Part shown: piece after piece, positions 62-2,473 of the stretch
Layout of the letters: each line of letters begins with the position of its first letter
Position numbering within the stretch: the stretch's first letter is position 1
Assembly: GCF_003334315.1 (NCBI RefSeq)
Contig: NZ_QOWR01000109.1
DNA from: Escherichia coli
Lineage (GTDB): Bacteria > Pseudomonadota > Gammaproteobacteria > Enterobacterales > Enterobacteriaceae
Direction: 5' to 3' (one strand)
Length of the DNA: 2,574 nt
The notes under the pieces: generated by a model
Databases searched by the model: none
What the model was told of the DNA's origin: nothing
What the model saw: only the letters and a program-made list of their open reading frames with translations
Translations under genes and position numbers: made by a program

Positions 62-397
62 TTGCTGGGTAAGATCAATCAGCTTCCCCCTACGGAAGAT
101 AATAAACAGCCTTCTTTTGATGTTCTTGATGATGATTGGGATGCGCCTTTGCCGTGGGAGACGGAAGAAACACCTGTTTCATCAAGTGAAAAGGTAGCTA
201 ATGATAAGGAGGATGTGTTAGAGAATTTTGCCTCTCTTATCATCCAGGAGAAGACTACTAGAACAGGAGGGGCATCATTTATAGAATTTGCAACATCGTT
301 AGCCTATAAGCACAGGTTAAAGCTACCAAATGGTATTGAGGCATATTTTTCTAAGAATTACCCAAATGTATACGAAGACTTTGATCTTCCCTTTTAA
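62..397 (+). CDS. Hypothetical acidic protein (111 aa) with an SSB-tail-like C-terminal tip ...YEDFDLPF; start codon uncertain
   Basis: Open frame from TTG at 62 to TAA at 395-397. An in-frame TGA at 29-31 rules out any start upstream of 62, and there is no in-frame ATG anywhere in the ORF. No clear SD precedes the TTG, so the start is uncertain; an in-frame GTG at 215 follows an AAGGAGG at 206-212 but the spacing is only 2 nt. The N-terminal half is strongly acidic and low-complexity (DVLDDDWDAPLPWETEE). The downstream gene's SD sits 5 nt after the stop, consistent with an operon. Confidence 0.5.
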   Translation: MLGKINQLPPTEDNKQPSFDVLDDDWDAPLPWETEETPVSSSEKVANDKEDVLENFASLIIQEKTTRTGGASFIEFATSLAYKHRLKLPNGIEAYFSKNYPNVYEDFDLPF

Positions 398-413: not shown

Positions 414-692
414 TTGATCCAATATTTAGTAAAAAATCAAGTAGACAGAATTCAGTGTAATGACACAGGAAAACGCATCTACGAAACACTTGCTTACCTC
501 TATAAAGGAAAGCCAACACCGCTAAAATATAGCGATGTGTTACATCGAGCAGGGTGCTCTGAAGATGGTTTAAAATTCTGGCTTAGACAGCTATCAAATT
601 TCGGTGTTATAGAGATTAAAGAATTATCTTTCTCTACATTCAATCTCAAAAGACTAGACAGAGAAATAGACTTCATCTATTCCACTCTCTAA
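414..692 (+). CDS. Hypothetical small protein (92 aa), possibly helix-turn-helix or winged-helix DNA-binding
   Basis: TTG start at 414 is the first possible start after an in-frame TAA at 402-404, and is preceded by a consensus SD AAGGAGG at 403-409. The frame runs uninterrupted to TAA at 690-692. The segment YSDVLHRAGCSEDGLKFWLRQL has the spacing of a helix-turn-helix (A-G at the turn), but the assignment is by eye only. Confidence 0.65.
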   Translation: MIQYLVKNQVDRIQCNDTGKRIYETLAYLYKGKPTPLKYSDVLHRAGCSEDGLKFWLRQLSNFGVIEIKELSFSTFNLKRLDREIDFIYSTL

Positions 693-733: not shown

Positions 734-850
734 ATGATAGTAGCTATGTATTGGTTATTGTTCTTTCTCACGTTAGAAACATACTTCGGGGTGTTTTCCT
801 TTAAAAGAAAAGGAAAAGTAAATGGCAAAAAGAAAAAACAACGTTGTTAA
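734..850 (+). CDS. Possible small hydrophobic peptide (38 aa): MIVAMYWLLFFLTLETYFGVFSFKRKGKVNGKKKKQRC
   Basis: ATG at 734 follows an AAAAGGA at 717-723 with 10-nt spacing. The peptide has a roughly 23-residue hydrophobic segment followed by a Lys/Arg-rich tail, and ends at TAA 848-850. It overlaps the 5' end of the 822-1232 CDS in another frame. It was read by hand and is below the ORF-track length cutoff; it could be a chance ORF in AT-rich DNA. Confidence 0.2.
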   Translation: MIVAMYWLLFFLTLETYFGVFSFKRKGKVNGKKKKQRC

Positions 851-1232
851 GAAAATCGGTGATTCAGCTTCTCTTCTAAGTAAACCTAAATCTCTTCTAA
901 GACGCAAAGACTTTAAAGAGCTAGTTACGCTCACCAAGCAAAATAGCGCCCCTGGCGAATGGAAAACAGAGATTATAGAACATTCTCCCTCTGTGCCTTG
1001 TGGAGATGAATATATCGCATTACAAGAAATCTTATCTTCAACACCTGGCGTATTCTGGAAACCTAGAAAAAGAAAAGAGTATATTGTTGACAGCTCTGAT
1101 CTACGCAAATACCAGATTTTAGGATTTGAAGATTATAACCACTATGTTGGTTATCTCGCCACCAATGGCCTAAATAATTTAGTTCCAGAATTCCAGATTT
1201 TAGATAATGCTGATCACTATGGAGACTTTTAA
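822..1232 (+). CDS. Hypothetical basic protein (136 aa), Lys/Arg-rich N-terminus
   Basis: ATG at 822 immediately follows an in-frame TAA at 819-821, with AGGA at 812-815 (6-nt spacing). The frame is open to TAA at 1230-1232. The N-terminus MAKRKNNVVKK...SLLRRKD is very basic; no family recognised. Confidence 0.65.
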   Translation: MAKRKNNVVKKIGDSASLLSKPKSLLRRKDFKELVTLTKQNSAPGEWKTEIIEHSPSVPCGDEYIALQEILSSTPGVFWKPRKRKEYIVDSSDLRKYQILGFEDYNHYVGYLATNGLNNLVPEFQILDNADHYGDF

Positions 1233-1233
1233 T

Positions 1234-1572
1234 ATGAACAAAAACACGTATGACACAATTTACTCACTAATTAATTATTATGAGGATGATTACCTCCTGC
1301 CTTTAAACCGCGCTGAACTTGAAGCATACAAAGAAAACACGCCAGCGGCACTAAATGAGGCGTTTAAACACTGGGATTTAGCTGTGAATGCCTTTGAGCA
1401 CCTCTCTAAGCGTGTAGAGATGCTCTGTAAGCGTGAGAACGCATATCTAACAGCGGATCAGATATGGAGTCTCTCAAACTGGATAGAAGGTATTGAATCG
1501 GACGTTCGCTATGTAGGGGATGGCCTTGTTGAACTCGCACAACGCTTAGGCGCTGCTATCACAGAAGAATAA
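1234..1572 (+). CDS. Hypothetical acidic, probably alpha-helical protein (113 aa from ATG 1234), translationally coupled to the upstream CDS
   Basis: The ORF track starts this frame at ATG 1207, but ATG 1234 is preferred: GGAG at 1221-1224 lies 9 nt upstream and the upstream gene's TAA (1230-1232) is 1 nt before this ATG, the classic coupling arrangement. ATG 1207 and ATG 1219 have no SD. Stop is TAA at 1570-1572. Protein from 1234 begins MNKNTYDTIYSLINYYEDDY... Confidence 0.6.
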   Translation: MNKNTYDTIYSLINYYEDDYLLPLNRAELEAYKENTPAALNEAFKHWDLAVNAFEHLSKRVEMLCKRENAYLTADQIWSLSNWIEGIESDVRYVGDGLVELAQRLGAAITEE

Positions 1573-1601: not shown

Positions 1602-1630
1602 TTGACATTTCATATATTGTATGTTAATAT
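1602..1630 (+). promoter_or_regulatory. Sigma-A-type promoter: -35 TTGACA (1602-1607), 17-bp spacer, TGn-extended -10 TAATAT (1625-1630)
   Basis: Perfect -35 hexamer, a 5/6 match at -10 with TG at 1622-1623 in the extended -10 position, and optimal 17-bp spacing. An A-rich tract (1571-1590) sits where an UP element would be. Predicted transcription start is near 1637. Sequence inspection only. Confidence 0.6.
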
Positions 1631-1636
1631 AATTAT

Positions 1637-1839
1637 ATAGGGTGATTATTTTTCCTTTATTGGTTCGATATTAAAAATTCTTCTTGTCGTTAAAGGGGAG
1701 TAAAATCTCCGCTCCCCGCTTCTCCTCCTTAAGTAATACTGTGTCATTTACCTCTTTTTTCCTTTGTTATGCATACATCTTGGAGTGTGCATAACATAGG
1801 GTAATTACAAAGGCGGCTTTAAATGCTGCCTTTTATTTT
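1637..1839 (+). ncRNA. Putative structured 5' leader or small RNA (about 200 nt) running from the predicted start site to the terminator hairpin
   Basis: Bounded by the promoter at 1602-1630 and the hairpin plus U-tract at 1809-1839. It contains a G-rich block AAAGGGGAG (1692-1700) that can pair with any of three CU-rich blocks (1706-1710, 1712-1717, 1721-1727), and an imperfect 10-bp inverted repeat (1767-1776 with 1785-1794). No ORF with a credible SD lies inside. I could not match it to any riboswitch class from memory. Confidence 0.3.
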
Positions 1840-1851
1840 GCCCGTTATGCA
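1766..1851 (+). repeat. Three copies of the 8-mer GTTATGCA: 1766-1773 (+), 1788-1795 (inverted, TGCATAAC), 1844-1851 (+)
   Basis: Exact 8-bp matches read directly from the sequence. The first and second copies form an inverted repeat with a 14-bp spacer; the third lies between the terminator hairpin and the 1902 CDS. Candidate operator half-sites or RNA structural elements. Confidence 0.3.
1809..1839 (+). terminator. Intrinsic-terminator-like hairpin with U-tract (AAAGGCGGC-TTTAAAT-GCTGCCTTT then TATTTT)
   Basis: The GC-rich stem GGCGGC (1812-1817) pairs with GCTGCC (1825-1830) including one G-U pair, is extended by three A-U pairs, has a 7-nt loop, and is followed by TTTTATTTT (1831-1839). 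It sits 237 bp after the stop of the 1234-1572 CDS and 62 bp before the 1902 start, so it could terminate block A, attenuate readthrough into block B, or both. Confidence 0.55.
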
Positions 1852-1901: not shown

Positions 1902-2114
1902 ATGTTGTTCTTAAATGATAAAGAGCAAATCATCAAGTATCGAGATGAAATGCTGCGAATTACTCCACAAATTACCGAAATGGTAGCTAAATACGCTGGG
2001 TGTTCTGTCGAGGAAGTAGAAAGATGTGTTGAAAAATATTTTTCTCCTTCTTCTCCGTCTACACCTTCCCTTAATGAATTAATCAAATTAAAAGCTAAGG
2101 AGATTACTAAATGA
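1902..2114 (+). CDS. Hypothetical small protein (70 aa): N-terminal helical region with possible HTH, Ser/Pro-rich linker, Lys-rich C-terminal helix
   Basis: ATG at 1902 with AAGGT at 1888-1892 (9-nt spacing). The frame is open to TGA at 2112-2114, which overlaps the next start as ATGA. Contains ITEMVAKYAGCSVEEVERCVEKY, then SPSSPSTPS, then LNELIKLKAKEITK. No family recognised. Confidence 0.55.
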   Translation: MLFLNDKEQIIKYRDEMLRITPQITEMVAKYAGCSVEEVERCVEKYFSPSSPSTPSLNELIKLKAKEITK

Positions 2115-2473
2115 TTATTGATTTAGACACTCTGTTTCCAGTTCGAAAGACTTTCACAGATATTGTAAGTTATTGTACTGATCCGTTTGCCTCTGTAGAA
2201 AGCAAGGTTTTTGCTTCTCTTCCTGCTGATGTTGAATGCGGAGACTTGATCACCAGCACGGGCGCTAAATATGTATCAGGAGATGATATCTATGTTGTTA
2301 TGAGTGAATTTGTAACGGCTGGAGAAAACAAGCCTGTAGATGTTTTACGTAGCAATGCTGGCCTTGTGTGCATTAAAGCTGATGCGCTGAATGCTGTAAG
2401 TGAAGCAGCAAAAACAGCATTAATTAAAAAAGGCTTCCAGCTTGAAGGCTTCCACTCTGTTTTCACTTCTTAA
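2111..2473 (+). CDS. Hypothetical acidic protein (120 aa), translationally coupled to the upstream 70-aa CDS
   Basis: ATG at 2111 overlaps the upstream TGA (2112-2114) in an ATGA arrangement. AAGGAG at 2097-2102 gives 8-nt spacing. Open to TAA at 2471-2473. No family recognised. Confidence 0.6.
   Translation: MIIDLDTLFPVRKTFTDIVSYCTDPFASVESKVFASLPADVECGDLITSTGAKYVSGDDIYVVMSEFVTAGENKPVDVLRSNAGLVCIKADALNAVSEAAKTALIKKGFQLEGFHSVFTS

Follow-up and report, generated by a model that had tools for sequence, protein, structure and literature searches.

The window considered here is a stretch of 2,574 nucleotides of Escherichia coli DNA (RefSeq assembly GCF_003334315.1, contig NZ_QOWR01000109.1), and two small adjacent genes within it, here called A and B, are probably core early genes of a satellite-like island rather than a toxin-antitoxin pair. 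An initial annotation, made from the letters of the window, had singled out these genes as a coupled pair of opposite charge, possibly an effector with its neutralising partner. Both open reading frames (ORFs) are real: they begin with ATG, lie on the plus strand and are under purifying selection. The pair and its junction are laid out as follows.

822 to 1232, plus strand: gene A, encoding 136 amino acids (aa); supported by the ORF itself, a median pairwise dN/dS of 0.145, an AlphaFold core and family alignments.
1221 to 1224, plus strand: the Shine-Dalgarno sequence GGAG for B, within the 3' end of A; read from the sequence and identical in 15 of 15 related loci.
1234 to 1572, plus strand: gene B, encoding 112 aa, putatively the last gene of the early operon; supported by the ORF, a median pairwise dN/dS of 0.197, an isoelectric point (pI) of 4.55 and profile homologues 3' of A.

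The TAA stop of A (1230-1232), the ATG of B at 1234 and the GGAG 9 nt before that ATG are placed just as the initial annotation had described them, and the junction ...GGAGACTTTTAATATG is identical in all 15 E. coli-type loci. A start of B at 1234, and not at an upstream ATG at 1207, is backed by cross-lineage alignment. The single-nucleotide spacing appears to be a trait of the E. coli lineage. The genes of the Enterobacter type overlap instead (by 8 nt), and the arrangement in both types is that of a translationally coupled pair.

The linkage of the two genes extends well beyond this junction. A is followed by a B homologue on the same strand in 10 of the 10 A-bearing loci examined, which comprise the E. 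coli type (L001), the Klebsiella type (L003), the Enterobacter type (L005), L020, L021, L022, L023, L024, L025 and a plasmid copy (L026, IncF); in L022 the match to B is marginal, and for the plasmid copy the assignment goes by position alone. These loci include A homologues just 24-38% identical to that of the window, and the distant B homologues 3' of A were found with profile E-values of 5e-15 to 2e-4. Six of the ten (Klebsiella, L021, L022, L023, L024 and L025) have the two genes set apart by one or two small ORFs. The two families are alike in size, with 387 clusters at 90% identity for A and 396 for B. Synteny of homologues, which had been proposed as a check on the pair, is therefore found as expected: A and B are conserved, co-oriented and always together in the ten loci, which supports the view of them as a conserved, functionally linked unit. 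The pair was never seen as a free-standing or patchy cassette; every copy found belongs to the constant backbone of a single island family.

Most lineages have a third small helical ORF between A and B, 55-76 aa long (L003 10405-10572; L021 8379-8609; L022 1654-1857; L023 7456-7668; L024 7712-7918), which the E. coli and Enterobacter types lack. A K-R-Q-x-F...L-x-x-L start is common to several copies, and one member matches PHROG 9455, a family of unassigned function, with E = 1.3e-4.

Matches to the interior of the window, with identities of up to 96.6%, were found in 455 of 5,426 complete E. coli chromosomes and in none of the plasmids in that set. The intact island measures 12.3-12.6 kb (L001 15250-27831), has a GC content of 39% compared with 52% in its flanks, and is framed, next to proA, by 20-bp direct repeats that match the 3' end of tRNA-Thr. 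Its 5' part consists of a small recombinase on the opposite strand, ~2 kb poor in ORFs, two small ORFs, a replication-initiator-like protein, a 92-aa ORF, A and B. After B come an intergenic region, a 70-aa ORF, a 120-aa ORF, the gene for a major capsid protein (MCP; Phage_cap_E) and a 65-aa ORF, and the 3' part holds a tape-measure-like protein of ~611 aa, a Dit-like protein of ~238 aa and a tyrosine integrase. The intact replication protein (222 aa, L001 19630-20298) matches PHROG replication-initiation, O-like and DnaD-like families with E ~1e-10, while other island types carry a replication protein of 482-486 aa with a faint DEAD-helicase signal. Replication and integrase genes have been swapped among the E. 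coli, Klebsiella and Enterobacter types. No portal or terminase was found in the island. Besides the integrase and the replication gene there is no unrecognised ORF above 240 aa, and a portal and a large terminase (TerL) are therefore excluded by size. The recognised virion genes are those for the MCP, the tape-measure-like protein (TMP) and the tube initiator only. Hence the features of a phage satellite that are present are an integrase with tRNA attachment repeats and foreign GC content, a replication module of its own, and an incomplete set of virion and packaging genes. A scan of species-representative genomes returned a single locus, and an Rfam search of the window and the whole island returned tRNA only.

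In L001, the stretch without any ORF above 80 aa runs from 17119 to 19196, between the divergent small recombinase and the first early genes. It has no Rfam match; it may hold an origin or a packaging site, or be an invertible segment. The small recombinase is of the serine invertase type in E. coli and of a short tyrosine-recombinase type (184-205 aa) elsewhere.

The structural relatives of the island are virulent myoviruses of the phi92/phAPEC8/rV5-like group (Stephanstirmvirinae and Vequintavirinae). Full-length profile matches to phage PaulScherrer were obtained for the MCP (E = 6e-27), the tape measure (E = 3e-112) and the Dit-like protein or tail-tube initiator (E = 3e-104). On this gene content, the island would be a phage satellite of phi92/phAPEC8/rV5-like myoviruses. 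The metagenomic variant L025 has, at 2698-3201, an ORF that encodes a Phage_Adaptor_PhiTE (head-tail adaptor) domain; it is directly 5' of A and overlaps it, which is a further link to PhiTE/rV5-like myoviruses.

Gene A is the most evenly conserved protein of this otherwise mosaic island, being 41-56% identical among the E. coli, Klebsiella and Enterobacter types, where the MCP falls to 19%. Its homologues (387 clusters at 90% identity, though no more than 38 at 50% identity in a set of 1.8 billion representatives) are found in Escherichia, Klebsiella, Enterobacter, Raoultella and Leclercia. The protein is built from a basic, largely disordered N-terminal arm (residues 1-43), a small alpha/beta core (~44-120) predicted by AlphaFold with a per-residue confidence (pLDDT) of 84-92, and a tail that is acidic and disordered. 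To call A strongly basic was an overstatement. With a pI of 8.57, it has a net charge of +2, to which residues 1-34 contribute +8 and the C-terminal third -6, and among 40 family members the pI ranges from 4.6 to 9.6, with most at 5-6 and a median of ~5.5, so that most homologues are acidic overall. Median charges in the same 40 members are +6 for the N-terminal arm, -5 for the folded core and -3 for the C-tail. Opposite charge is thus a trait of the E. coli variant of the pair and not of the family, and what is basic in A is the N-terminal arm and a PRKRK loop (residues 81-85) that is near-invariant in the family alignments. The Lys/Arg-rich N-terminus had been taken to suggest nucleic-acid binding; the conserved arm, together with the loop, makes such binding plausible.

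The C-terminal part of A, still within the core, holds an aromatic helix-hairpin motif, KYQILGFEDYNHYVGYLATNGL, at residues 95-119. The pattern KW-x3-GF-x-D-x2-HY-x-GW-L-x-FN-x-L is shared by these residues and by the proteins of PHROG 5488 (function unassigned), with E-values ranging from 0.016 for the window protein down to 9.5e-6 for a divergent family member. In Vequintavirinae, tblastn and profile searches place the motif at the N-terminus of acidic proteins of 76-81 aa, namely KB57_134 of Klebsiella phage KB57 and peg.182 of E. coli phage TH18, both encoded between thymidylate synthase and the large subunit of ribonucleotide reductase (nrdA). It is also found in the 82-aa protein bas60_0222 of PaulScherrer (Stephanstirmvirinae), encoded in the same position by nrdA, in which a strand-rich and then a basic stretch precede the motif in the same order as in A. 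The PHROG 5488 phage proteins differ from A in being shorter, in lacking the long basic arm and in lying in a nucleotide-metabolism cluster. Acidic members of 76-82 aa are located at L027 2507-2737, L028 2525-2770 and L031 26829-27077 (minus strand).

Gene B, by comparison of the types, is among the fastest-evolving genes of the island, with 22-35% identity among the E. coli, Klebsiella and Enterobacter types. When used alone as a query it retrieved E. coli relatives only, and the 396 clusters were reached with a profile that included the Enterobacter and Klebsiella positional counterparts. It had been described as an acidic, all-helical protein of 113 aa. The length is in fact 112 aa; acidity and helicity both hold, with a pI of 4.55 and a net charge of -10 in the window and, in the family, a net charge of -5 to -15 and a pI of 4.1-5.1 throughout. 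A three-helix bundle (residues 5-34, 37-66 and 74-108; pLDDT 83-92) was predicted by AlphaFold in a fused A-linker-B chain. A 13-nt direct repeat lies in B at window positions 1402-1435, spaced 21 nt (CTCTCTAAGCGTG and CTCTGTAAGCGTG, encoding KRVEMLC and KRENAYL), and at this point, the end of helix 2, the length of B differs among E. coli variants by one 7-residue unit (one more in P0123, one fewer in P0131).

The stop of B is followed, at a distance of 30 nt, by a near-consensus sigma-70 promoter at 1602-1630, which has the form TTGACA-17-TAATAT and includes an extended -10 TG. Seven of eight lineages, among them L003, L005, L020, L021, L023 and L024, carry a promoter of the form TTGACA-17-TG-TAnnnT at 13-93 nt from the end of B and, beyond it, a conserved TAGGG; in the remaining one, L022, the site is a looser TTTGCA-18-TATAAT that lacks the TG. 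Because this strong conserved promoter begins 13-93 nt after B, B is taken to close the early unit, and the capsid/tail unit is presumed to start afresh from it. The window terminator (1809-1840) lies ~200 nt 3' of the promoter and ahead of the first late gene at 1902, and leaders of 200-900 nt with terminator-like hairpins precede the capsid genes in other lineages too. The late unit is probably under post-initiation control, and the layout of promoter and leader, which resembles lambda pR'-tR', suggests control by anti-termination or a non-coding RNA. Nothing in the leader region was recognised by Rfam, and blastn of the intergenic region after B against phages gave nothing meaningful. A 17-nt palindromic element, GCAAC-N6-GTTGTA, occurs twice, at 1578-1594 (just 5' of the late -35) and at 1849-1865 (just after the terminator); as its arms are short and the DNA is AT-rich, it may be due to chance and was not counted as evidence.

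Around the pair, the window holds the following features.

1 to 80, no strand assigned: end of an IS3-family insertion sequence (IS); 93-96% identical by megablast to IS3 ends in ~2,800 plasmids.
80 to 397, plus strand: C-terminal remnant (~105 aa) of a replication-initiator-like protein; aligns to the C-terminus of the intact protein (window ORF 62-397).
414 to 692, plus strand: conserved 92-aa ORF 5' of A, function unassigned; orthologues at the same position in Klebsiella and Enterobacter.
734 to 850, plus strand: unannotated hydrophobic 38-aa ORF, MIVAMYWLLFFLTLETYFGVF...; overlaps the start of A out of frame.
1602 to 1630, plus strand: near-consensus sigma-70 promoter; the best promoter-like site in the window, scoring 10/12.
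1809 to 1840, plus strand: intrinsic-terminator-like hairpin and T-run; 9-bp stem with 5 GC pairs and a T tail, deltaG -13.7 kcal/mol.
1902 to 2114, plus strand: conserved 70-aa ORF, putatively the first late-module gene; positional counterparts in the other lineages examined.
2111 to 2473, plus strand: conserved 120-aa ORF, which the major capsid gene directly follows in intact islands; 57% identity with its Klebsiella orthologue.
2476 to 2574, no strand assigned: end of a second IS3-family element, where the capsid gene belongs; 91-93% identical to IS3-family ends.

The IS at 1-80 truncates the replication gene of the island, and homology to the intact island begins at ~80-100; the N-terminal helix-turn-helix (HTH) part of the gene has been lost to the IS. 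At the other end, the MCP gene of intact islands starts 19 nt after the 120-aa ORF. The window copy thus appears to be an island remnant bracketed by two IS3-family ends, with its replication gene truncated and its capsid gene replaced. The island copy on the IncF plasmid (L026) is likewise riddled with IS3. The 92-aa ORF is 29% identical to its Klebsiella orthologue by local blastp alignment (25% globally) and 41% to that of Enterobacter (39% globally), and has no Pfam or PHROG match. The 120-aa ORF stands where the head-decoration gene stands in phage PaulScherrer; assignment as a head-decoration protein was not adopted, as the position fits but no sequence similarity was detected. The 38-aa ORF consists of an N-terminal hydrophobic helix (MIVAMYWLLFFLTLETYFGVF in the window) followed by a basic tail. 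Small hydrophobic ORFs of 34-49 aa are also present at L003 9916-10020, L005 9916-10029 and L021 7904-8053; a similar peptide is kept in L003 and L005, the likeness of the hydrophobic L021 ORF is less obvious, and at the DNA level this stretch could not be aligned. The 38-aa product may be a leader coupled to A or else a small peptide of the membrane.

By the searches for families and folds, A and B belong to orphan families confined to the island. No match to either was found in Pfam, NCBIfam, PADLOC or annotated PHROGs, and hence no toxin, antitoxin or defence family; the B family returned marginal DUF5829 matches only from Pfam. Searches of these databases with the neighbours of the pair gave nothing functional either. 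Single-sequence and profile searches of the PDB yielded noise or designed helical bundles only. With the fused model as query, Foldseek retrieved from BFVD and AFDB50 nothing beyond the own uncharacterised families of the two proteins and, for B, generic helical bundles; the best match of A was a Shigella sonnei protein of 95% identity. The family and fold searches detected no HTH, ribbon-helix-helix (RHH) or Q-type domain in A or B, and B, a plain predicted three-helix bundle, has neither a DNA-binding domain (HTH, RHH or AbrB) nor a toxin-wrapping segment. When A and two variants of B were searched by tblastn against 50,697 phage genomes, neither protein had a counterpart there apart from the motif of A. 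A marginal, fragmentary match between the B profile and bas60_0241 of PaulScherrer (E = 0.005 among 2,499 segments) was not accepted.

In the mechanism that we propose, A and B would be the last two, co-transcribed genes of the early (replication and take-over) operon of the island. A would act as an adaptor, whose helper-derived motif docks onto a helper or host factor; as a mimic, it would dock onto the partner of the small nrdA-adjacent phage protein, while its basic arm and PRKRK loop would hold nucleic acid, be it the late leader next to the pair or satellite DNA. The part of B, an acidic protein, would be that of a protein-binding partner or modulator on which its target exerts diversifying pressure. 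Together the pair would serve helper take-over or late-module timing, and not toxin/antidote addiction. The parts of this proposal differ in strength. That A and B are early satellite proteins acting on a helper or on the timing of the late module is a tentative reading, its chances somewhat short of even. That the island represents an undescribed satellite family of Enterobacteriaceae in which A is a helper-derived mimic and B its fast-evolving partner, together triggering or timing helper take-over, is possible but on the whole doubtful, and the specific adaptor mechanism for A is, taken by itself, rather unlikely to be correct.

Several observations weigh against the proposal. No homology assigns a function to A or B, the phage counterpart of A is itself uncharacterised, and no credible B homologue was found in the 50,697 phage genomes. 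Induction, packaging and helper dependence of the island are deduced from gene content only. The fused AlphaFold model (A, a 30-residue Gly/Ser linker and B, built with 17 paired rows plus unpaired rows) reached a pTM of 0.44 and did not raise the confidence of A, although such a model is a weak surrogate for a complex. Since the island of the window is an IS3-flanked remnant with its replication gene truncated and its capsid gene absent, the pair may moreover be non-functional in this copy.

Among the other explanations, the one that survives best is that A and B regulate the late operon, with A binding the late promoter or leader RNA as an activator, anti-terminator or repressor and B modulating A. 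Directly 3' of the pair comes a near-consensus promoter whose position and sequence are both conserved, with a hairpin-bearing leader after it, A is the most conserved protein of the island just as the promoter is conserved, and the arm of A can be likened to the arginine-rich RNA- or DNA-binding arms of known proteins. Short palindromes 7-10 nt 5' of the -35 in five of eight lineages might be added to this; however, with arms of 4-6 nt in AT-rich DNA they could be due to chance, and they were dropped as regulatory evidence. With no HTH, RHH or Q-type domain detected, and with the phage counterpart of A lying in a nucleotide-metabolism cluster and not beside late genes, we regard this explanation as unlikely. 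Lambda Q-like or N-like antiterminators were considered in particular: the position next to a promoter-terminator unit fits the lambdoid arrangement, but there is no Q-family Pfam or fold match, and the likeness to the N arm is compositional only, so the assignment was rejected.

A role in morphogenesis or packaging is improbable. In this case B would be a scaffold or a determinant of capsid size, and A a small-terminase-like or Rpp-like protein that redirects the helper terminase to island DNA. An island with its own MCP and without terminase or portal needs some way of being recognised for packaging, scaffold proteins are typically acidic and helical, and the ORF with the PhiTE head-tail adaptor domain is directly 5' of A in L025. 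Against this, the pair is in the early operon, with a promoter and terminators between it and the capsid module, no profile similarity to the scaffold, terminase or decoration proteins of PaulScherrer was found, and the conservation of A does not track the type of MCP.

The remaining alternative, a toxin-antitoxin or effector-immunity system in which A is a nucleic-acid-targeting toxin neutralised by the acidic B, fits small, adjacent, translationally coupled genes that always co-occur, the basic arm of A and a downstream partner that evolves faster, as antitoxins and immunity proteins often do, but is very improbable given that neither protein has a toxin, antitoxin or defence family or a fold match, that A is acidic overall in most lineages and charge complementarity is not conserved, that one or two ORFs are inserted between the genes in 6 of 10 loci, that the pair belongs to the constant backbone of a single island family and is no mobile cassette, and that the fused model gives no complex signal; the effector and neutralising partner of the initial annotation were set aside on these grounds.

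Taken alone, as basic/acidic coupled genes, the pair is a modest finding, and the island context is the more interesting part. The searchable literature yielded no description of the island or of either protein. If the satellite interpretation is true, the island would be a new type of satellite in E. coli, Klebsiella and Enterobacter, whose set of capsid, tape measure and tube initiator suggests remodelling of both the head and the tail of the helper. Phi92/rV5-like phages are widely considered for therapy, and a resident island that exploits or blocks them would then be of practical relevance. Of its orphan genes, A and B characterise the island most. As A is the best-conserved marker of the island, the pair is a natural entry point for island detection and for genetic tests.

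In comparison with known systems, type II toxin-antitoxin modules resemble the pair as two small, co-directional, coupled genes on a mobile element, with one basic segment and one acidic product. Unlike in those modules, A and B have no known domain or fold, their complementarity is not conserved, ORFs intervene in most lineages, and the pair belongs to one island backbone. A second comparison is with the accessory proteins by which satellites act on their helpers, such as PtiA/PtiM and Ppi of the Staphylococcus aureus pathogenicity islands (SaPIs), Rpp of an E. coli phage-inducible chromosomal island (PICI), Sid, Delta and Psu of P4, and CapR, NixI and TcaP of the PICI-like element (PLE). Of these, PtiA/PtiM offers a precedent in which effector and modulator are encoded together. 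Like these proteins, A and B are short, fast-evolving orphans placed between the replication and morphogenesis modules and confined to a satellite lineage; they differ in that no sequence or structural similarity was detected in general searches, in which structures were not compared individually, and in that we infer their action on a helper.

At the level of the island, the gene content appears unlike that of P4-like elements, PICIs, capsid-forming PICIs (cf-PICIs) and PLEs. Only tails are borrowed by cf-PICIs, which have genes of their own for portal, protease, head-tail connectors and terminase. The present island is similar to them as an integrative element of Enterobacteriaceae, of ~12-15 kb, with its own HK97-fold MCP, but it lacks portal and terminase, carries a tape measure and a tail-tube initiator, and has its relatives among virulent phi92/rV5-like myoviruses. 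The PLE of Vibrio cholerae is a satellite of the virulent myovirus ICP1 and uses the coat protein of its helper. Like the PLE, this would be a chromosomal island that exploits a large virulent myovirus and not a temperate phage, whereas no homology between the two was found, and the island described here encodes an MCP, a TMP and a tube initiator of its own.

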